Origin: an uncultured Bacteroidales bacterium
Lineage (GTDB): Bacteria; Bacteroidota; Bacteroidia; Bacteroidales; GCA-2748055
Assembly (NCBI GenBank): GCA_963809925.1
Contig: CAWELH010000007.1
Span: forward strand, 98,347-162,346
Length of the DNA: 64,000 nt
Reading direction: 5' to 3'
Under the pieces are notes generated by a model, which was given only the letters and a program-made list of their open reading frames with translations, did no database searches and was not told where the DNA came from. The translations under genes and the position numbers were made by a program. How positions within the stretch are numbered: the stretch's first letter is position 1; each line of letters starts with the position of its first letter. This document shows, one piece after another, positions 516 to 55,185 of this stretch.

Positions 516-1475
516 ATGCAGAAAGATACATCACGAAAAGTAAAGCTCGGCATATTTGTCACGATCGTGCTCGCAGCATTTTTCTTTGCCATTTATTTTG
601 TCGGCAAAAACATGAACCTGTTCCATGAAGTTACCAAGATATACACGGTATTTCCCGACATTAAAGGTCTTGGAAGAGGAAGCAATGTAAGGTTCTCGGG
701 TATAACCGTTGGCACTGTTTCTGCGATAAGCATCAGCAATGATACAATTGTTCGCGTTGAAATTTCAATCCAGACCGATTATGTGAAGTTCGTGAAGGAA
801 GATTCAAAGGTCGAGATCACGAACGACGGACTCATGGGAAACAAGATCCTCATCATTCATCATGGTTCTTCCGATTCCCCTTCGGTTAAGGAATACCAGA
901 CGTTGCAGTCATCGAAGACCATCAACGTAGAGGACATTGTGAATGAAGCAACGAAGATCATCATAAACGCACGCGATGCCACAAATGTCTTTCTGGAAGT
1001 AAGCAACCAATTAAAATCTGGGAAAGGCGACCTCGGACGACTGATCTACGACACCTCTCTCACACAAAATCTGAAAAGCACTATGAACCACCTTCTGGTC
1101 ACCTCCCGGAATACCGAGGAGCTCACCAACCATATCCGCGAAGGTGAAGGCGATCTGGGAACACTGATATACAGTGATTCACTTACAAACAGCCTCCGTA
1201 CATCATTCCTGGAACTGGAGCAGGCCACCGAAAATATCCAGAAAATATCCCAAAGTCTCGATACCGCAGCATATCATATCAATGCTGGCAGCGGTATCCT
1301 GCACACCCTGATCTACGATTCGACGTTTATCCGGCACGCCGACTCTACCCTTACGAATATGAATCAGGGCATTGATGAGATAACCAGGGCTTTTGAGGCG
1401 ATCAAGGAGAGCTGGATTATTAACTTGTTCGGGGGGAAGGAGAAGAAGAGGAAGAGTGATGGGGAGAGGGAGTGA
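516..1475 (+). CDS. MCE/MlaD family protein
   Basis: N-terminal TM helix (LGIFVTIVLAAFFFAIYFV), then an MCE-type core (FPDIKGLGRGSNVRFSGITVGTVSAISI). The C-terminal half has three internal repeats (GDLGRLIYDTSL, GDLGTLIYSDSL, GILHTLIYDSTF). The last ~8 codons and the stop lie inside a dispersed repeat module. Confidence 0.75.
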   Translation: MQKDTSRKVKLGIFVTIVLAAFFFAIYFVGKNMNLFHEVTKIYTVFPDIKGLGRGSNVRFSGITVGTVSAISISNDTIVRVEISIQTDYVKFVKEDSKVEITNDGLMGNKILIIHHGSSDSPSVKEYQTLQSSKTINVEDIVNEATKIIINARDATNVFLEVSNQLKSGKGDLGRLIYDTSLTQNLKSTMNHLLVTSRNTEELTNHIREGEGDLGTLIYSDSLTNSLRTSFLELEQATENIQKISQSLDTAAYHINAGSGILHTLIYDSTFIRHADSTLTNMNQGIDEITRAFEAIKESWIINLFGGKEKKRKSDGERE

Positions 1476-1735
1476 TGGGGATCCGCCTACGCTGAAGCTA
1501 CGGTGGACGCGGTCCACAAAACCCTCTTCGGCAAGCTCAGAGAACGCCTTCGGCACGGTTAGGGAATGTCTTTGGCAAGCTCAGGTAGCCCCTTTGACAA
1601 GCCTGGGCCCCCCTTCGGCAAGCTCAGGGACCGTGGTTTCTTGCACTTTTGTGAGAAATAGTCGTTTCGGCTCCGCTCAACGACCGCTGGCAGTTTTCAT
1701 TTTAACATGTTTATTTTGGTAGAGTGGTTGGATTG
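1451..1735 (+). repeat. Intergenic repeat mosaic: AGTGATGGGG x2, one inverted 31-nt hairpin unit, CTTCGGCAAGCTCAG-like motifs x4
   Basis: AGTGATGGGG at 1455-1464 and 1471-1480. 1481-1518 (ATCCGCCTACGCTGAAGCTACGGTGGACGCGGTCCAC) matches the reverse complement of the 31-mer arrayed at 48740-48956. CTTCGGCAAGCTCAG-like motifs lie near 1527, 1573, 1597 and 1618. Confidence 0.8.
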
Positions 1736-5341: not shown

Positions 5342-5414
5342 TGTCCCGTGGTGTAATTGGCAACACGTCTGACTCTGGATCAGAAGAGTCCAGGTTCGAG
5401 CCCTGGCGGGACAA
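5342..5414 (+). tRNA. tRNA-Gln (anticodon CTG)
   Basis: Hand-folded cloverleaf. Acceptor TGTCCCG/CGGGACA, D arm GTGT-AATTGGCA-ACAC, anticodon arm TCTGA-CTCTGGA-TCAGA, T arm CCAGG-TTCGAGC-CCTGG, 73 nt. CCA is not encoded. Confidence 0.9.
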
Positions 5415-5428
5415 CATAGATAGATTAA

Positions 5429-5599: not shown

Positions 5600-5690
5600 G
5601 TAAACCCCTCTAATTTAATTCATTAAAGGGGTTTTATATTTGTTAGGGGAATGTACAGGGGAATTACTGCTCTCTTTTCTATGTAAAAAA
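5600..5690 (+). repeat. Second, diverged copy of the hairpin + AGGGGA..CAGGGGA module
   Basis: AAACCCCTCTAAT..ATTAAAGGGGTTT hairpin, then TTAGGGGAATGTACAGGGGAATTAC. Parallels 5427-5520 (TTAGGGGACAATTCAGGGGACATTAT). Confidence 0.6.
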
Positions 5691-5988
5691 TTACCATTGG
5701 TGGAAAAAACGGACAAATTGACCACCCAATCGCAATTTAAACTGACCACCTAATCGCGGGGTATTTTGCCCCCACTCCGCGGAACAAAGTATAGTACTAC
5801 CCATTCTTAGGACCACTTTTTTTTATTCTTAATTGAAATTTATCATTCTTTTGATGATGTAATCCGGTGTTAATTACCGGAAATCACTCGTAGTGAAGCG
5901 AAGAGTTATTCTGGTTATTAACACCTTTTCTTTTTTGCCTACTTTTTTCTTTTGTTAATACGCTTTCACCGGTTGATACCTCCCATTT

Positions 5989-6828
5989 TCAATACCGGAA
6001 CGAGAAGCCCACAAAAAATACCTTGGGAGACGTATTCTTCAACCCATAATACACTCCGGTATCCAGCTTAAGGTTTTCTTTCCATTCATAAACCAATCCT
6101 GAATTTAAAAAATACGCATTCGTTTTCAGCTCATTGTCCCGTTCGGCCAGGCCTTCAGCAAAGAAAGAAACCGGCCCGGCCAACGGGTGTGCAAGGGTAG
6201 CCGAAACCAGCGGGTTTACGTGATATGCCCCGCCGGCATGTCCTTCTTCCACATCCATCTCAGCCTGTGCGCCAAAACCCCAGTTGTGCGGCAGCGATAT
6301 ACTGAAAGGGAAAACCACACCCCCGGAAATTTTTGAACCGGAATTTGTGGGAACATTGACAAAAGGCAGAATGGCCATTGCGGTATTGCCGTTATCATTC
6401 CCCAGGATGTTTTGCTTAGCCCTGATGGTTAGGGTACCGAAAGAGGAATGCGATGATGGTTGGGAACTTCCGTCCATCACTCTTATCTCGTCATAGGATG
6501 CCGCAATGAACTGAATGTCGAGCGAATTGGTGATGCCCGCTTTGAGATTAAATACGTTGAACGAATTTTCAATGGTCTTCTTGCCGGCAACGGATGAACG
6601 ATCCGTTTTAAAAAGATCCGTTTCAAACTGAAAATGCCCGGCATCCACGGTATACGGGCTTTCCGTTGCATCGGGACGATCCGTTTCAAAGCTCCGCATC
6701 AGATTACCGGGACACGGGTGAAAAAGGCAGTACCCGGATTTTGCCGAATCCGGCACTGTTTCAGCACGACTTAAAACAGCAAATTGCGGGAGCAGTACCA
6801 GGAGTAGTATATACGTATATCTCATCAT
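5989..6828 (-). CDS. Outer-membrane beta-barrel 'transporter' family protein (MetA-pathway/phenol-degradation-like)
   Basis: Signal peptide. DRPDATESPYTVDAGHFQFETD motif typical of that family. C-terminal FVGFSFRY. The start lies 2 nt after the mntH stop, on the same strand. Confidence 0.65.
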   Translation of the reverse strand: MMRYTYILLLVLLPQFAVLSRAETVPDSAKSGYCLFHPCPGNLMRSFETDRPDATESPYTVDAGHFQFETDLFKTDRSSVAGKKTIENSFNVFNLKAGITNSLDIQFIAASYDEIRVMDGSSQPSSHSSFGTLTIRAKQNILGNDNGNTAMAILPFVNVPTNSGSKISGGVVFPFSISLPHNWGFGAQAEMDVEEGHAGGAYHVNPLVSATLAHPLAGPVSFFAEGLAERDNELKTNAYFLNSGLVYEWKENLKLDTGVYYGLKNTSPKVFFVGFSFRY

Positions 6829-21074: not shown

Positions 21075-21131
21075 GATTGGCGGATGCGGGGGATCTGATC
21101 GAAAGAAAAAACACTACATAACCTGTTTTTT

Positions 21132-21229
21132 AACATGTTTGGGAGTGGCTGAGAATTGTTCTTTCGGAGCATTAAGGGTGGTGGGTGGGGGGTGGGATCC
21201 CCTGCATAAGAGTATATAAGAACAATATT
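21132..21229 (+). repeat. G4/C-tract hairpin element, copy B (G-rich strand is plus)
   Basis: TTGTTCTT (21156-21163) and AAGAACAA (21218-21225) flank GGGTGGTGGGTGGGGGGTGGG (21176-21196). Confidence 0.85.
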
Positions 21230-21604
21230 TGAAGCCGTAAATCATGGTATATTTTGTTAGATCTTTTGGGTCAATGGATTAATAGTTCCCTTCGAAACAT
21301 ATCTATCTCTCATCATGCCAGTGATATGTCCACATCAACTCTTTATAAATTCCTGATCTTCCAGCTCTTTTCAGGCCTTTGGATCTTAACATTGATTCTG
21401 CAATAAAAAGTGAAATCAATTCCTTATGACTTTGGGATAGTTATCCCCTTAATTCGGGTGACGTTTGCCCGGGTTCCACAAATCCAGACACACAACCCAG
21501 TGTCCCCTCACTCCTGAGTAGATCCAAAGATTCCCACCCCAATTTGTATTTTCCCCCGTTCAGTTTATCTTTATTCCCTCAACAATAAAATTAACTCAGG
21601 AGAA

Positions 21605-23116: not shown

Positions 23117-23833
23117 CTAGTTGCCGTTGCCTGCAAACATTGACTGCTGCGGGTTATAATTTTCAAACGCCTCCAGATAGAGATTCACAAACTCATGCAT
23201 CCTTTTTCTCCGGTACTGGATCACCCAACGGGGATGCGGCAGGGGGATGATCTCGCCGAAGAGTGAGAAACGGGCGTTCAGTCTCTGGAGATAGTCAAAG
23301 TTCTTCCCATTGCCCAGACAGAAACAGTATCGCTTATCAATCTCCCATTCAAGCAGCTCACGGAGGCAGTCGAGAATAAAGGGCTCTGCGATCTCCACCA
23401 GCTCCTTTGAATCGTAATAGTTATAATTCAGTCCGTTCCGGGTAAAGCCGAGCGGGCTGACCGCACTGATGAGGAACTGATCATAGAATTTTTTCACCCC
23501 GCCAAATGCCCCGATCACCTCATAGACAAATCCGGCTGACGCTTCGGTGGTATCCGCAAAAGGATTCTCAATTTCACAGTACGTTCTGAGTTTCACAGGA
23601 TCGGTAAAAGGAATGCCTGTGACACCTGCGCCGAAACGTCCTGGATTGATACCCAGGATCAAACGGCGGGGGCGATTGTCCGAAAAATACTTTTGATAGA
23701 ATTGAATTGTCACATCCCTTACCGTCTCATTCCTGAAAGGATTCATCACCTCCACACCTTCCGGGAGAGAAGCATCAAAATGAAGCTTTTCGTTGAATGC
23801 GATGATCTTATCGGCGAGTGTCGGGGTAAACAT
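23117..23833 (-). CDS. Uracil-DNA glycosylase superfamily protein (SMUG-like/DUF4918-type)
   Basis: ILGINPGRFGAGVTGIPFTDP (GxNPG motif A-like) and IPLPHPRW (motif B-like HP[SR]). Confidence 0.6.
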   Translation of the reverse strand: MFTPTLADKIIAFNEKLHFDASLPEGVEVMNPFRNETVRDVTIQFYQKYFSDNRPRRLILGINPGRFGAGVTGIPFTDPVKLRTYCEIENPFADTTEASAGFVYEVIGAFGGVKKFYDQFLISAVSPLGFTRNGLNYNYYDSKELVEIAEPFILDCLRELLEWEIDKRYCFCLGNGKNFDYLQRLNARFSLFGEIIPLPHPRWVIQYRRKRMHEFVNLYLEAFENYNPQQSMFAGNGN

Positions 23834-24168
23834 TTATTTGATTTGTTGATTTGTTGAATTGTTGATTTGTTGATTTGTTGATTTGTTGAATTTAAGATTG
23901 ATTTATAGAAACTCATCCGATCCATGGGCAAAACCATGGCTATTGTTGGTGAATGCCTCCGGCATGGAAGAAGTGTTCTAAAAATCCTGCTCCATCTTTT
24001 TATTTGTTGAGTTGTTGATCCACCTTCGCTCAAGCTACAGCGGACGCGGTTTGGTGAATTGAAGAGTGATGTAAAGGACATTCCTAACTTCCTAACTTCC
24101 TAACTTCCTAACTTCCTAACTTCCTAACTTCCTAACTTCCTAACTTCCTAACTTCCTAACTCCATCCC
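23834..24168 (-). repeat. Composite octamer-periodic element filling the glnS / UDG-like intergenic gap
   Basis: The module order is colinear with 48410-48739 (see findings). Contains the 47-nt core at 23921-23967 and a 31-nt hairpin unit at 24019-24049. Confidence 0.9.
24081..24160 (-). repeat. Perfect tandem array (TTCCTAAC)x10, i.e. (GTTAGGAA)x10 in glnS sense
   Basis: Counted directly: 80 nt with no mismatch. Ends 8 nt from the glnS stop codon (24169-24171). Confidence 0.97.
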
Positions 24169-25905
24169 TCACTCCCTCCCCGACATCTTCGCCCAAGGAT
24201 CCCGCAATGGTACCGTCCGGTTAAAGACCGGTTTCTCAGGGGAGGAATCGGGATCAACATTAAAATAGCCCAGTCGCTGGAACTGGAACTGGGTAAGAGG
24301 AGCCGCCCCCTTCAATCCCGGCTCAACGTAACAATTGTTCAGAATGCGAAGGGAGTCATCATTCAGAAATTCCTTAAAATCGATACCTCTATGTCCGTCC
24401 GGTTCGGGATCGTTGAACAGCCTGTCGTACAGCCTTACTTCGGCTTTCACGGCATGGCGCGCTGACACCCAGTGAAGGGTGCCTTTGACTTTGCGGTTTG
24501 CCTGGGGTGCGCCGCTTCGTGTTTCAGGATCGTAAGTGCAATGGATCTCAATGATCCGGCCGTTTTCATCCTTCACGGCTTTTTCACAGTAGATGATATA
24601 GGCCGATTTCAGACGAACTTCCTTTCCGGGTGTCAGTCTGAAAAACTTTCCCGGAGGATCTTCCATAAAATCGTCCTGTTCAATATAAATTTCACGGGAG
24701 AAGGGTATGGTTCTGGAGCCCATCGACTCATCCTCCGGGTTATTGATCGTTTCCAATTCCTCCACGAGGTCTTCGGGATAATTGGTGATCACGAGTTTTA
24801 GGGGATCCAGGACCGCCATCACTCTGGCAGCCTTTATATTTAGATCTTCACGGACTGAATGTTCCAGAAGTCCGACATCGATGATGCCGTCAACCTTGGT
24901 TACGCCGATGCGCTCAGCAAAATTCCGGATGGATACCGGTGTGTACCCCCTGCGGCGAAGACCTGAGATAGTGGGCATCCGGGGATCATCCCAGCCCCTG
25001 ACGAGACAATTCTTTACCAGTTCCAGCATCTTTCTCTTGCTCATGATGGTATAGCTGAGATTCAGCCGAGCAAACTCAATCTGTCTGGGCCGGACATTTC
25101 CTAAATTTCGAGGCATATTTACATCCCATCCATAGTTGGTAACCTGATCAAGAAACCAGTCGTAGAGCGGCCTGTGAACTTCAAATTCCAGTGTACATAT
25201 GGAATGGGTTATTCCCTCAAAATAATCAGACTGCCCGTGCGCATAATCGTACATTGGATAAATACACCAGGCATCACCGGTTCGATGATGAGATTTTCGC
25301 ATGATCCTGTACATAAGTGGATCCCGCATGTGCATATTTGGCGAGGACATATCGATTTTTGCCCTAAGGACATGAGTTCCTTCAGCAAATTCTCCCTTTT
25401 TCATCCTCTCAAAAAGATCCAGGTTCTCCTCAACACTACGATCCCGGTAAGGACTTACGCTGCCAGGTGTGGTGGGTGTACCTTTCTGTTCGGCAATGGC
25501 TTCTGCACTCTGATCATCAACATATGCCTTCCCGTCCCTGATAAGTTTTTTCGCCCACTCATAGAGCTGATAAAAATAATCAGACGCAAAGTACTCCCTG
25601 TCGTCCCATCCGAAGCCCAGCCACTTGATGTCTTCCCTGATGGAATCGACATACTCAATCTCCTCTTTTGTCGGGTTTGTATCATCGAACCTCAGGTTTG
25701 TCAGTCCGCCAAACTTTTCAGCTATACCAAAATCTATACATATAGCCTTGGCATGGCCGATATGCAGATAACCGTTTGGCTCGGGTGGGAAACGGGTATG
25801 AACCCTATCTCCGTTCTTTCCCGATTTGAGGTCTTCATCAACGATCACCTCAATAAAATTCAGACTTTTCTTCTCAGTTTTTGGCTCTTCCGGATGCATA
25901 TTCAT
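24169..25905 (-). CDS. glnS: Glutamine--tRNA ligase
   Basis: [37 protein letters not shown] closely parallels E. coli GlnRS. TIMSKRK (KMSKS-class). 578 aa. Confidence 0.95.
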
Positions 25906-41050: not shown

Positions 41051-41320
41051 AAAATTGATCGGACAAGGTAGTTTCAATCTGGAAAATTCAGCTTGAAGAA
41101 CCGTCGGAAGTCTATTCGGGAACGCTAGACAGGAATGCGGAAACTGCTGCTTTAGATGGATCCGGCAGGAAGAAAATTCAGATCTGTTTTTTTCGAGGTT
41201 ATCGTTATTTTGTTGTCAGACGATAAGCATTTTTCATTGTTTGATATGTTGATGTTAATCACTTAACCTTTTCTGCATTATGGCATAAATGATAGAAGTT
41301 TCTGATTCGGATGAGTCTCT

Positions 41321-41418
41321 TATATTGTTCTTATATACTTATTTGTAGGGGATCCCACCCCCCTCCCGCCACCCTTAATGCTCCGAAAGAACAAATCTCA
41401 GCGTCCCCTGCCCATGTT
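41321..41418 (-). repeat. G4/C-tract hairpin element, copy C (G-rich strand is minus)
   Basis: TTGTTCTT (41325-41332) and AAGAACAA (41387-41394) flank CCCACCCCCCTCCCGCCACCC (41354-41374). Confidence 0.85.
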
Positions 41419-41694
41419 CTTCAACACCACCTCAACCATTATTCGCAATAAAATCCTTTATCCACCTTTAACATCCTGTGTTCCAAATAAACCATCTCCT
41501 TTTACCCTGAGACGAAGATCCCCGGTATTGCGAAATTGAGTTTTCAACTTCCTTGTCTGTTTCAATATGTCATTTTCCCCATAGATTACTTACCTTTACA
41601 TTGAATTGACACCTGGCTGGACAGCCTTAAATTGTCTGGGCTACATACAACACGGACCTTCATTATTTAACCTATTTTCAACAACCATTAACCC

Positions 41695-47088: not shown

Positions 47089-48420
47089 ATGAAACAGGTA
47101 AAACTCATACTCCTGATTGTGGCCGTTGTACAGATAAGCGTTCAGGCCCAGATAAATAAAAGGATAACTGCTGAAGCTTCAAAGGAAAGTGAAGCAGCAT
47201 TGAAGCTTTGTAAACAGATTCATGAAAATCCCGAGCTTTCAACTATGGAATTTGAAACCGCGGAGCTGATGGCCTCTGTGTTTGAAAAAGAAGGGATGGA
47301 AGTGACGCGTCATTTTGGTGGTAACAGTGTGGTAGGAATTTATAAAAACGGAAACGGGCCGGTGATCATGTTGCGTTGCGATCTGGATGCATTACCTGTT
47401 CAGGAGAAAACCGGGCTGGATTTTGCCAGCACAAAACAGATGAAAAATACCAATGGGGAGGAAGTGTATGTTATGCATGCCTGTGGACACGATATCCACA
47501 TGTCGGTGTTGGCCGGTACAATCCACACCCTGATCGCGTTGAAAGATACATGGAAAGGAACGCTGATGGTCATTGCCCAGCAGGCTGAAGAGATTTCCGG
47601 CGGTGCCACCACAGCCATCAAGGCAGGTCTGTTTCAGAAATTTCCCGTACCTGATTATGCACTGGCCTACCATATAAATCCCGATGTCGAGTCGGGCAAG
47701 ATCGGACTGGTTAGCGGACCGGCTCTTGCAGGTGTTAAGACCGTATATATTACCGTGCACGGTAAAGGCGGACACGGAGCCCTCCCGGAGAAATGCATCG
47801 ATCCCATCGTTATCGCTTCGCGAATCGTTTTAGACCTTCAGACCATTGTCAGCAGGGAGGTCAGCCCTCAGGAACCCGCAGTTGTAACTGTCGGATCCAT
47901 CCATGGAGGTACCCGGCCAAACATCATCCCCGATGAGGTAAAGCTGGAACTTACCCTGCGCTATTACAGCGATGAGGTCATAGATCAGATTATAAGCGCA
48001 ATAAACAGAATCTGCCGTGGCGCAGCACTTACTGCCGGCTTGCCGGAAAACCTGATGCCGGAAGTGATCGTATCTCCCGAAAATACACCTCCGGTAATTA
48101 ACAATGCCAGACTTAAAAGTGATATTGAATCCTTCTCCGGTGGCATCCTTGGCGCTCAGAATGTGGTTCCGGTAAAACCCGTGATGGGTGCCGAAGACTT
48201 CGGCCTCTATGGCAAAACACCAGAAAATATTCCCATTTTTCTGATCTGGTTAGGGATCACGAAACCCGAGCTGATGGCCGAGTATAAAAGCAAAGGCCAG
48301 TCACCTCCTCCGCTGCACTCACCCAACCTGACGCCGGACTATCAGAAGGCCATTGAGACCGGGATCGAGGCGATGACGGCGAATGTGATTGGGATGATGA
48401 AGGGCGGGGGGAAGTTATGA
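47089..48420 (+). CDS. M20D-family amidohydrolase (aminoacylase/hippurate-hydrolase-like)
   Basis: Signal peptide. LRCDLDALP, MHACGHDIHM, GGHGA. The ATG at 47089 is preferred over the TTG at 47083. The final codons (GGG AAG TTA TGA) are in register with the downstream octamer repeat. Confidence 0.85.
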   Translation: MKQVKLILLIVAVVQISVQAQINKRITAEASKESEAALKLCKQIHENPELSTMEFETAELMASVFEKEGMEVTRHFGGNSVVGIYKNGNGPVIMLRCDLDALPVQEKTGLDFASTKQMKNTNGEEVYVMHACGHDIHMSVLAGTIHTLIALKDTWKGTLMVIAQQAEEISGGATTAIKAGLFQKFPVPDYALAYHINPDVESGKIGLVSGPALAGVKTVYITVHGKGGHGALPEKCIDPIVIASRIVLDLQTIVSREVSPQEPAVVTVGSIHGGTRPNIIPDEVKLELTLRYYSDEVIDQIISAINRICRGAALTAGLPENLMPEVIVSPENTPPVINNARLKSDIESFSGGILGAQNVVPVKPVMGAEDFGLYGKTPENIPIFLIWLGITKPELMAEYKSKGQSPPPLHSPNLTPDYQKAIETGIEAMTANVIGMMKGGGKL

Positions 48421-48739
48421 TGTTATGGAGTTAGGAAGTTAGGGAGTTAGGGAGTTAGGGATGTCCCTTATCACTCTTCAACTCAACAAACCGCGTCCGC
48501 CGTAGCTTGAGCGAAGGTGGATCAACAACTCAACAACTCAACAAATAAGAAGTGATGGGGAGAGCATGAGAGGTGCTTGTAGAAACGATTCATCCATGCC
48601 GGAGGCATTTTCCAACAATAGCCATGGTTTTGCCCATGGAGAGGATACGGTTTTAGAGCTCTCTCTTGAATTCAACAAACCGCGTCCGCCGAAGCTTGCG
48701 CCACCGCTAAAGGCGGCACGCGGTCAGCGAAGGTGGGCT
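48410..48739 (+). repeat. Composite octamer-periodic element (colinear with 23834-24180)
   Basis: GGAAGTTA-type octamers x6 at 48410-48457. Linker GGGATGTCCCTTATCACTCTTCAACTCA. 31-nt hairpin unit at 48491-48521. (CAACAACT) repeats. AGTGATGGGG at 48551. 47-nt core at 48594-48640. A diverged 31-mer with an insertion at 48681-48739. Confidence 0.9.
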
Positions 48740-48956
48740 GTGTCCGCCGAAGCTTCAGCGAAAGTGGACCGTGTCCGCCGTAGCTTCAGCGAAGGTGGGC
48801 TGTGTCCGCCGTAACTTCAGCGAAGGTGGGCTGTGTCCGCCGTAACTTCAGCGAAGGTGGGCTGTGTCCGCCGTAGCTTCAGCGAAAGTGGACCGTGTCC
48901 GCCGTAGCTTCAGCGAAAGTGGACCGTGTCCGCCGTAGCTTCAGCGAAGGCGGATC
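48740..48956 (+). repeat. Seven head-to-tail copies of a 31-nt hairpin-forming unit (GTGTCCGCCGTAGCTTCAGCGAAGGTGGGCT)
   Basis: Units counted at 48740, 48771, 48802, 48833, 48864, 48895 and 48926, with no spacers. Two 3' variants (GAAGGTGGGCT / GAAAGTGGACC). Confidence 0.95.
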
Positions 48957-49043
48957 AATAAATAGTCTCTGTGCTGAATGGTTGACAATTTCATGAATCG
49001 AATTACATAGCAGCATTGGCCGGTGCATACCGAATACTAAAAA

Positions 49044-49634
49044 ATGAAAAAACTTCTTCTGATAATCCTGCTCCTTCCCGGCCTCATCGCATATCCCCAA
49101 AATCCGGATATTGATCTTTTGCGGGCTATTAATCATCACCGCAATCCTCATCTCGACAATACATTCCGCTTTGTCAGTGACGCTACGGCACCCATTGCTA
49201 TCGCAACACCGGTTTTGATGTTTGGAATTAGCCTGGCAAACCATGATACCTGTCTGCGGCACGATTCATATTATATCGCGGCATCACTCATTACAGCTGC
49301 TGCCCTGACAACGGTTCTTAAATACACCATCGACCGTAGCCGGCCTTTTCAAAAATATCCTGATATTATAAAACTCGGTGATGCCGGCAGTCCCTCCTTC
49401 CCTTCCGGACATACGTCCGATGCATTTTCCATGGCCACTTCCCTTAGTCTCACGTATCCAAAATGGTATGTGATCATCCCTGCCTATGCGTGGAGCTGCA
49501 CGGTAGCATTCGCCAGGATGGATCTCGGTGTTCATTATCCTTCAGATGTACTGGCCGGTGCAGTCATCGGGGCAGGATCAGCCTGGCTGTGCCATATCGG
49601 GCAGGAATACCTGAGGAAAAAGTATACCAGATAA
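49044..49634 (+). CDS. PAP2-family phosphatase
   Basis: KYTIDRSRP, PSGH and ARMDLGVHYPSD, the three PAP2 motifs. Confidence 0.85.
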   Translation: MKKLLLIILLLPGLIAYPQNPDIDLLRAINHHRNPHLDNTFRFVSDATAPIAIATPVLMFGISLANHDTCLRHDSYYIAASLITAAALTTVLKYTIDRSRPFQKYPDIIKLGDAGSPSFPSGHTSDAFSMATSLSLTYPKWYVIIPAYAWSCTVAFARMDLGVHYPSDVLAGAVIGAGSAWLCHIGQEYLRKKYTR

Positions 49635-54448: not shown

Positions 54449-54507
54449 AATGCTTTGTATCTACACTATAAAAATAGCGAATTTTTATAGAAAAATGCCC
54501 TTCTTTT

Positions 54508-54690
54508 GATTTGGTGATTTGGTGATTTAGTGAATTGAAGAGTGATTTAAAGGACATCCCTAAATCCCTAACTTCATAACTCCCTAATCATAACTCCATC
54601 ACTCCATCACTTCTTATTTGTTGAGTTGTTGAGTTGTTGAGTTGAAGATTGATTTAAAGAACATCCCTAACTTCCTAACTTCATAACTTC
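54508..54690 (-). repeat. Two tandem minimal units of the octamer-periodic element
   Basis: In minus-strand sense: GAAGTTAT GAAGTTAG GAAGTTAG GGATGTTCTTTAAATCAATCTTCAACTCA (ACAACTCA)n ACAAATAAGAAGTGATGGAGTGATGGAG TTATGA.. GGGATGTCCTTTAAATCACTCTTCAATTCA (CTAAATCA CCAAATCA CCAAATCA). Confidence 0.9.
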
Positions 54691-55185
54691 CTATCTCCCC
54701 AGCAATTCATCCAGATTCTCCAGACCTGCTGTAAATCCTTCCCTGAATCCCATCTCAATGATCTTCTCCAGGTCGGTGAGTCTATCAAACGTCAATACTA
54801 CGTTTACAATAGTAGATCCGGAATCCTCACGGAATGAATTGGACCAGTTAATTGTCGGCATATTCGGATCTATATTTCCGTTTTCATCGCAAAAGGCATC
54901 CCTGGATGAAAACGCTTTCATCGGGTTAATGGTGATGTAATCAACCCGCGACCAGTGCTCTGACCTGTCAGGTCCGACCATGGCATAAAGCCACATTCCT
55001 CCTTCCGAGAAATCCATGGATTTGGTTCTGCCTTTCCATGGTTTCGGAGCCCACCATTGATCAAGAATATTGCTCTGTGTCCATGCAGCCCAAACTTTGG
55101 CAAGGGGTGCTTCAAACTCCCTTTTCACCGTAATGGCTTTCTTTTCCTTATCGACGGAAAATTCCATGATTAAATTACGTTTCAT
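54691..55185 (-). CDS. SRPBCC-superfamily protein (AHSA1/START-like)
   Basis: 164 aa. [20 protein letters not shown] opening typical of AHSA1-like SRPBCC proteins. Overlaps the upstream ArsR gene by 11 nt. Confidence 0.8.

Follow-up and report, generated by a model that had tools for sequence, protein, structure and literature searches.

The 64-kb window analysed here (the whole stretch of DNA under study, 64,000 nucleotides from contig CAWELH010000007.1 of an uncultured Bacteroidales bacterium; all positions below are window coordinates) contains short tandem arrays of the octamer GGRAGTTA, which is free of C on the mRNA-sense strand and adjoins the 3' ends of unrelated genes. A first-pass annotation, made from the sequence alone, had proposed that four genes terminate inside such an element. 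All four open reading frames (ORFs) are genuine genes, coding for an MlaD protein, a glutaminyl-tRNA synthetase (GlnRS) with the class I catalytic domain and two anticodon-binding domains, an M20 peptidase with its dimerisation domain, and an AHSA1/SRPBCC protein, and the four junction strings and stop coordinates that had been given proved exact. Arrays of GGAAGTTA are present at three of these sites (GlnRS, M20, and AHSA1/SRPBCC), each in the sense orientation, and Tandem Repeats Finder reported period-8 arrays at 24081-24161 (10.1 copies, 100% matches), 48422-48461, and 54666-54693. The MlaD site carries no GGAAGTTA array, which reduces the four sense-oriented elements originally counted to three.

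The repeat register had been described as running through the stop codons of all four genes. This is true of the M20 and AHSA1 genes, the stops of which lie within units, but not of GlnRS, where the TGA precedes the first recognisable unit by 4 nt, nor of MlaD, which has no array. In the M20 gene the register reads GGAAGTTA from 48410, TGATGTTA from 48418, and TGGAGTTA from 48426, followed by GGAAGTTA, GGGAGTTA, and GGGAGTTA, and this places the final Lys-Leu codons and the TGA in units 1-2, as had been stated. The window arrays (10.1, ~6.5, and ~3.5 copies, all of period 8) are all found at ORF ends or in intergenic DNA. The motif GGAAGTTAGG with at most one mismatch occurs 22 times in the window, compared with 3.3 ± 1.9 times in shuffled sequences, and the finding that all three arrays start between -12 and +4 nt from a sense stop has a probability of ~3.6e-5 under random intergenic placement. 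A C-free trailer of this kind follows only 3/53 window genes. Replication-strand control of orientation was considered and rejected: the minus-strand arrays at 24.1 and 54.7 kb and the plus-strand array at 48.4 kb lie in one monotonic GC-skew stretch, and since both orientations occur there, each matching its gene, orientation follows the adjacent gene and not the replichore. TTATG variants occur in the first units of all three arrays (24150-24168 on the minus strand, 48415-48443 on the plus strand, and 54664-54690 on the minus strand) and make the 5-codon mini-ORFs MELGS, MMLWS/MELGS, and MKLGS, each closed by a stop, which start 4 nt past the upstream stop or overlap it (ATGA at M20).

Scanning one genome per GTDB species for GGRAGTTAGGRAGTTAGG returned at least 106 stretches with GGRAGTTA arrays, belonging to Cyanobacteriota, Acidobacteriota, Bacteroidota, Chloroflexota, Armatimonadota, Planctomycetota, Gemmatimonadota, and others; more than 10 phyla are represented among the matches listed, to which the counts in this and the next paragraph all refer. 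The Bacteroidota carriers are Algoriphagus, uncultured Bacteroidales, and Chitinophagales, and isolates that carry the arrays include Paraglaciecola arctica (L059), Algoriphagus marincola DSM 16067, Algoriphagus formosus, and Pleurocapsa sp. CCALA 161. The 5' edge of the G-rich strand was nearer to a gene than the 3' edge in 57/78 spacers, compared with 21 for the reverse (p = 5.6e-5), with median distances to the gene of 19.5 nt for the 5' edge and 169 nt for the 3' edge. Over ~100 arrays, the median distance between the G-rich 5' edge and a sense stop is 4-12 nt, and that between the far edge and the next gene is 196-280 nt. Where the left neighbour ends in sense, the array was found within 10 nt of the stop in 26/46 cases, whereas the right edge lay that close to an antisense stop in only 4/54; the census thus shows a strong bias towards stops and towards the sense orientation. 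The stop was inside the array, at -9 or -17, in 16/59 cases with such a left neighbour. Across many phyla, then, GGRAGTTA arrays are generally placed flush with a stop and in the sense orientation, and the second alternative offered by the annotation, placement or selection just after termination, survives on this bias and on its agreement with the rule published for G-rich heptamers (Rehm et al., 2015; PMC4692102).

The polarity depends on how the neighbouring genes are arranged. In tandem-sense spacers the median distance was 4 nt and 14/16 arrays were closer to the left gene, and in convergent spacers the array was nearer to the gene for which it is in sense in 26/32 cases; antisense-tandem spacers showed no polarity (11/24). 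Convergent spacers are enriched (30/78 arrays vs 123/546 spacers; the class distribution differs with p = 0.008), while divergent spacers hold 8/78 arrays (10%) against 83/546 spacers (15%). The gene-side boundary is sharp, since in-register similarity extends for about one unit (3.66 vs 2.86 matches per 8) and falls to background beyond, whereas the distal side of the array decays gradually. A G-free run of at least 30 nt was found within 250 nt downstream of 32/101 arrays and upstream of 7/106. Other C-free or G-free arrays with units of 6-10 nt in the census loci showed the same polarity in 36/47 cases, which are not independent of the seed arrays, and the carrier loci contain octamer arrays (62 of period 8) together with heptamer arrays (67 of period 7). 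In some phyla the downstream G-free run is the reverse complement of the G-rich array, which gives a true hairpin (L006, L040, L044, L076). These four loci come from Thermoanaerobaculales metagenome-assembled genomes, and in them perfect Shine-Dalgarno (SD) repeats, (GGAGGTGA)n, are followed by (CACCTCCT)n, that is, the 16S anti-SD sequence repeated, in long hairpins.

A simple property of the unit accounts for part of this picture. Because the unit is 8 nt long, coprime to 3, and contains TAG, all frames are closed within 24 nt; in the 10-unit array the sense-frame TAG stops stand at offsets 3, 11, and 19 and recur every 24 nt, and the antisense strand likewise has TAA in all three frames. 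An ORF can therefore overlap an array by no more than ~8 codons. Frame closure thus explains why genes end in the element once an array lies at the gene end, but not why the arrays are located there. An array could also replace a lost native stop at the price of a trivial C-terminal change, as the M20 sequence suggests.

As one of two alternatives, it had been proposed that the final codons and the stop come from the element. For GlnRS this is refuted by orthologues that lack the element and keep both terminus and stop. The termini of the six closest orthologues (79-81% identity, 566 aa) read ...WAKMAGKE, ...WARMTAKE, or ...WTKVAGKE, and the window protein, of equal length, ends in ...WAKMSGRE. 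Three syntenic spacers between GlnRS and the uracil-DNA glycosylase (UDG) gene of these orthologues measure 122, 72, and 81 nt and have no array, compared with 335 nt in the window, and one of the relatives (L112) reads GGGAAGGAGTGA where the window GlnRS end reads GGGAGGGAGTGA. These alignments show the TGA of GlnRS, its final codons, and the G-rich tract to be ancestral, and the mosaic described below was gained just past a stop that was already there. The entire 335-nt spacer is repeat mosaic, and the three relatives carry 72-122 nt of unrelated sequence there. The relatives without the GlnRS array have related arrays elsewhere (L112 at 5887-5908 and 5652-5810; L111 at 6247-6265; TCACCAAA-type G-free octamers and GTGATGGGGATGG); the repeat families are common to the clade and the occupied loci differ between relatives.

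Donation is unsupported at AHSA1 and MlaD, both of which have family-typical ends. In AHSA1 the match to the Pfam model extends to the final model position, at residue 163/164, and homologues end in DELLKSM, DELLAI, or DELLAGQAA, 2-6 aa past LL, where the window protein ends in DELLGR; at most one or two codons may be repeat-derived. MlaD orthologues have a variable K/E-rich tail after SWIINLF and are 318-325 aa long (319 aa in the window), and we see no evidence of donation there, the purine-rich tract being the normal tail of the family. Only at M20 is donation plausible. The M20 protein also occurs on ENA contig ERZ25039539:contig_17290 (263,730 bp), which belongs to an assembly of a soil metagenome; its homologues bear the names Maribellus, Draconibacterium, Mariniphaga, and Prolixibacteraceae, and the best non-self match is 72% identical. 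Of 120 homologues, most end in ...NVIGLMGK or similar, and the window protein, ending in ...NVIGMMKGGGKL, is ~3-5 aa longer. The nearest relative ends in ...LMEKGGGR, with its TAG within GGAAGGTAG, one mismatch from a repeat unit, and with a C-poor, TAG-rich purine tract after it. It is plausible that the 3-5-residue extension and stop of this clade are encoded by repeat-like DNA older than the split of the two lineages. The GGGGAG-type tract noted before each stop is real in all four genes, but it belongs to ancestral coding sequence in GlnRS and to the usual K/E-rich tail in MlaD, and it is not general elsewhere: among the matches listed, the 18 coding nt before flush stops resemble control genes in purine and C content and are modestly higher in G (0.34 vs 0.25). 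This comparison gives no support to a purine-rich gene end as a general requirement.

Alignment of the GlnRS-UDG, M20-PAP2, and AHSA1-GH43 spacers revealed a common mosaic on the gene-sense strand, in which (GGAAGTTA)n is followed by a junction box, an optional hairpin resembling the repetitive extragenic palindromic (REP) elements, a G-free array, CAACAAATAAGAAGTGATGG, and further modules (Table 1). The junction box GGATGTCCTTTAaATCACTCTTCAAyTCA is common to the three spacers, the REP-like hairpin has the consensus CCGCGTCCGCyGTAGCTTGAGCGAAGGTGGATC, and the G-free, CA-rich array is built of CAACAACT, CAACAAAT, or CCAAATCA units. In unitigs of a soil metagenome the array has a depth of ~20x, the hairpin ~60x, and the "mid" module ~200x, compared with 3-4x for the unique flanks, and module ends join many different sequences. 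Because the depths are unequal and the module ends have many joins, the modules are repeated independently, as in bacterial interspersed mosaic elements (BIMEs), and there is no single transposable unit. No terminal inverted repeats of at least 12 nt were found at the spacer ends. In this genome the array forms the 5' module of a BIME-like intergenic mosaic present in many copies. The mosaic can extend over an entire spacer, starting at the stop of one gene and reaching the ATG of the next: the N-terminus of UDG is conserved (M....LADKIIAFNE), and the G-free array truly adjoins the authentic start codon, 4 nt apart. The CA array is devoid of G and of start codons; having no G, it offers neither AUG, GUG, or UUG nor an SD-like motif.

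Table 1. Coordinates of the genes, arrays, and mosaic modules in the 64-kb window.
Feature	Position	Strand	Basis or remark
M20 amidohydrolase gene	47089-48420	+	TGA 48418-48420; C-terminus KGGGKL, then stop
C-free octamer array GGAAGTTA/GGGAGTTA, ~6.5 units	48410-48461	+	units 1-2 hold last two M20 codons and TGA
(GGAAGTTA)10 array	24081-24163	-	100% matches; begins 4 nt past GlnRS TGA (24169-24171)
Octamer array, ~3.5 units	54664-54693	-	AHSA1/SRPBCC TAG (54691-54693) in first unit
MlaD 3' end	1456-1630	+	GTGATGGGGAGAG motif in last codons; TGA 1473-1475; REP-like hairpin 1480-1512; 22-nt repeats 1520-1630
Junction box (ATGTCCcTTaTCACTCTTCAAyTCA)	48462-48490	+	spacer alignment
REP-like imperfect hairpin CCGCGTCCGCCGTAGCTTGAGCGAAGGTGGATC	48491-48523	+	unitig depth ~60x
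G-free (TCAACAAC)n array and tail CAACAAATAAGAAGTGATGGGGAGAG	48522-48565	+	tandem repeat and spacer alignment
"Mid" module CCATGCCGGAGGCATT...GCCATGGTTTTGCCCATGG	48590-48640	+	second copy 23922-23967 (-); depth ~200x
31-nt REP-like hairpin unit x7.3, direct orientation	48724-48950	+	tandem repeat search
REP-like hairpin copy in GlnRS-UDG spacer	24017-24049	-	spacer alignment
G-free (CAACAAAT)n array	23838-23905	-	ends 4 nt before UDG start codon (23831-23833)
AHSA1-GH43 spacer, second half	54507-54644	-	(CAACTCAA)n; degenerate G-rich array 54556-54611; second junction box; (CCAAATCA)n

Several observations concern other repeats of the window. Of the modules that make up the mosaic, the mid module (CCATGCCGGAGGCATT..AATAGCCATGGTTTTGCCCATGG) is the most abundant, and it has three CCATGS boxes with alternative pairings possible. 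The MlaD gene is followed by a single inverted copy of the hairpin and five units of the 22-nt repeat AACCCCTTCGGCAAGCTCAGGG, and the GTGATGGGGAGAG motif of its end is also intergenic at 48552-48564. A separate dispersed repeat of ~90 nt is present in three copies (1730-1850 on the minus strand, 21130-21250 on the plus strand, and 41310-41430 on the minus strand; 82% column identity); it has a canonical G-quadruplex (G4) motif, GGGTGGTGGGTGGGGGGTGGG, bracketed by TTGTTCTT and AAGAACAA, and no Rfam match. With Rfam 15 at the gathering score the window gives a tRNA-Gln only, and the best sub-threshold match in 48400-49050 has E = 0.17. This tRNA-Gln(CTG) gene (5342-5415 on the plus strand), the sole Rfam or ARAGORN match in the window, lies 19 kb from the GlnRS gene.

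Structural readings of the window arrays fared poorly. No match to (G3+N1-7)x4 was found in them, the largest having GG tracts only, and G4Hunter-like scores were 0.57-1.14 (0.62, 1.14, 0.57), so that a G4 was rejected for these arrays; GGGAGTTA variants in other genomes would meet the G4 definition. Pairing of the two arrays as hairpin arms was rejected as well, RNA folds of the two full spacers being no stabler than shuffles (z = 0.05 and +1.96), and (GGAAGTTA)n and (CAACAACT)n are not complementary. An intrinsic terminator was sought without success on the sense strand of either spacer, and one weak antisense match was found in the mid module. A structured element after the stop (an RNA or DNA G4, a long hairpin with the C-rich array downstream, or a REP-type block) that stalls ribosomes, blocks exonucleases, or ends transcription would agree with the true hairpins of other phyla, with the enrichment of convergent spacers, and with the report that related G-rich heptamers fold into G4 in vitro, with a preference for 4 units (PMC4692102), but the lack in the window arrays of a G3 motif, of complementary arms, of folds beyond shuffles, of a sense terminator, and of an Rfam family makes us give it little credence. 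Strict mRNA-sense polarity, flush to the stop and inside the ribosome footprint, invites the thought that the arrays may be a functional 3'-trailer signal spanning phyla and acting on the ribosome as it terminates or afterwards, or on the access of Rho or RNases, with SD-like GGAG/AGGA cores spaced at 8 nt as one conceivable means. Such a general function is unlikely, in our opinion; if it were true, the arrays together with the G-free, start-codon-free leader arrays would be a "punctuation" cassette insulating neighbouring genes. Its sense-specific form, in which the SD-like cores engage the post-termination ribosome or a C-free "anti-rut" tract followed by a G-free tract resembling a Rho utilization (rut) site sets Rho loading, with insulation of genes as the outcome, is quite unlikely as well. 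The perfect SD array GGAGGTGA and its anti-SD partner CACCTCCT at L040 and L044 speak for it, as does the recurrent C-free-then-G-free order (32/101 downstream vs 7/106 upstream among the matches listed). Bacteroidota ribosomes, however, sequester the anti-SD sequence and cyanobacteria are not known to have Rho, and both groups carry the arrays all the same; only three window genes have such a trailer, and arrays are gained and lost between close relatives.

Mobility has also to be considered. A mobile element of the kind of the miniature inverted-repeat transposable elements (MITEs) or Correia elements, targeting gene 3' ends and donating the last codons and stop, would fit the high-copy modules of the mosaic, the fact that three relatives lack the element in the orthologous spacer between GlnRS and UDG, the position of the stop and tail of M20 in repeat-like DNA, with a tail longer than in most orthologues, and the stops inside arrays elsewhere (16/59 among the matches listed). 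It is nevertheless rather improbable, because the GlnRS terminus and stop are ancestral, the AHSA1 model is complete with homologues ending 2-6 aa past LL, and the MlaD tail is family-typical; there are no terminal inverted repeats and no evident target-site duplication, and the module copy numbers differ as expected of a mosaic and not of one unit. The junction box ATCACTCTTCAAYTCA gave at least 120 matches in JGI metagenomes, none with flanking arrays among the matches listed, which we take as chance matches only, and no transposase was identified in the 64-kb window, the ORFs of which were not scanned for Y1 transposases such as the RAYT associated with REP elements. A DNA-level scar would arise if spacer breaks were resected as far as selection allows, to the gene boundaries, and were healed by adding C-free units repeatedly to the two 3' ends, in a templated or slipped manner, with a G-rich array, a junction, and a C-rich array as the product. 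The C-free ... G-free composite, the replacement of the GlnRS-UDG spacer from stop to start with no recognisable ancestral remnant, and the sharp outer and gradual inner array boundaries are what this process would leave. The antisense-tandem spacers without polarity (11/24 among the matches listed) are, however, unexpected from a strand-symmetric DNA process, there is no candidate enzyme, and the two arms consist of different units; the idea is purely speculative and, to us, highly improbable.

The explanation that we prefer, with a probability of about 60%, is that the array is a slippage-prone simple sequence repeat (SSR) module of a mosaic extragenic repeat, acquired at gene 3' ends and persisting in the sense orientation because it is harmless there. 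Copy number would change by slipped-strand mispairing, and gene ends that already look like a single unit (GGAGTGA at GlnRS, MlaD, L034, and L077) are the probable seeds of new loci. The sense orientation would be kept because a C-free, structure-poor, stop-rich trailer beside the terminating ribosome may do the mRNA no harm or may even be of mild use to it, other placements being purged, and the array may even buffer the loss of a native stop, as at M20. The G-free partner would be tolerated up to the next ATG since it has no start codon and no SD-like sequence. Some points weigh against this explanation. Frame closure is symmetric, with TAA on the antisense strand, and leaves the sense preference unexplained; there is therefore room for a sense-specific function. 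The argument from tolerance and selection is one that we infer from sequence, and seeding rests on a few GGAGTGA gene ends and the weak in-register signal given above (3.66 vs 2.86 per 8). The genes of the census are longest-ORF calls and not curated annotations. Finally, that one octamer recurs in phyla so far apart may point to a conserved partner or to horizontal spread, neither of which slippage and tolerance would explain.

The positional rule, with the G-rich strand mRNA-sense and starting at or a few nt from a stop, has been known for heptamers for a decade and has never been explained. It is now seen to hold for one octamer across many phyla, with a polarity tied to the stop of the sense gene and not to both neighbouring ORFs equally, and a G4 explanation is weakened by the fact that an octamer family unable to form canonical G4 obeys the heptamer rule. 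In practice, the arrays close every frame and can silently replace native stops, thereby affecting gene-end annotation and C-terminal tails (M20), and they break short-read assemblies. What is new here, as we read these sequences, is an octamer example of a published yet unexplained class of bacterial intergenic repeats. The literal repeat strings were not found in the searchable literature, nor was a functional study of such arrays.

Among the known systems, the REP elements and BIMEs of enterobacteria and pseudomonads resemble the mosaic in having high-copy imperfect palindromes of ~30-35 nt, single or tandem, joined to other short motifs in mosaics located 3' of genes and in operon spacers. 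By the definition of that class, high-copy imperfect palindromes in extragenic mosaics, the hairpin modules belong to it and the octamer array does not; SSR arrays are the dominant modules here, and the hairpin arrays are direct and not alternating. REP elements near a stop act through structure, and the octamer arrays are without such structure. The MITEs that remodel ORF ends (Correia/NEMIS and the Rickettsia palindromic elements) are likewise small non-autonomous repeats able to overlap coding ends and alter C-termini, as at M20, but terminal inverted repeats and target duplications are absent here and the terminus is unaltered in 3/4 genes.

TAACTGA arrays, found patchily in Beggiatoaceae, Cyanobacteria, and Bacteroidetes, stand among other heptamers and are missing from the orthologous spacers of close relatives, and the frame-closure argument has already been made for them (MacGregor, 2015; PMC4679880). 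GGRAGTTA arrays share with them a period coprime to 3, stops in every frame, ORF-end overlaps of a few codons, an intergenic location, mixing with other repeats, absence from orthologous spacers of relatives, patchiness across phyla, and a TAACT core, which is found in the reverse complement TAACTTCC. While TAACTGA occurs mostly just upstream of start codons in the forward orientation, GGRAGTTA is mostly found directly after stops, its G-rich strand being the sense strand. The closest relatives are the G-rich heptamers GGGAATC of Xanthomonas and GGGGAYT of Nostoc, which are strongly intergenic, prefer the first 50 bp after a stop on the coding strand, sometimes overlap the stop, are under-represented between divergent ORFs, vary in copy number among relatives, and are without an established function (Rehm et al., 2015; PMC4692102). 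In Nostoc, the heptamers of that study correspond to the classical short tandemly repeated repetitive (STRR) heptamers. STRR sequences are heptanucleotides of heterocystous cyanobacteria, whereas the unit here is 8 nt and the host Prolixibacteraceae-like. The GGRAGTTA array is, like the heptamers of Rehm et al., a short (6-9 nt) G-rich tandem repeat, mainly non-coding, stop-adjacent on the coding strand, and varying in copy number, and 3/3 window arrays, at -11 to +4 nt, lie within 50 bp downstream of a coding-strand stop or overlap it. It differs from them in its 8-nt unit, in the GG rather than GGG tracts of its main arrays, which fall outside the G4 definition, in its coupling to a G-free partner array and REP-like hairpins, in its Bacteroidota host, and in its occurrence in more than 10 phyla among the matches listed. 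The GGRAGTTA array is an octamer member of the G-rich heptamer SSR or STRR-like kind known from Xanthomonas, cyanobacteria, and some Bacteroidetes.

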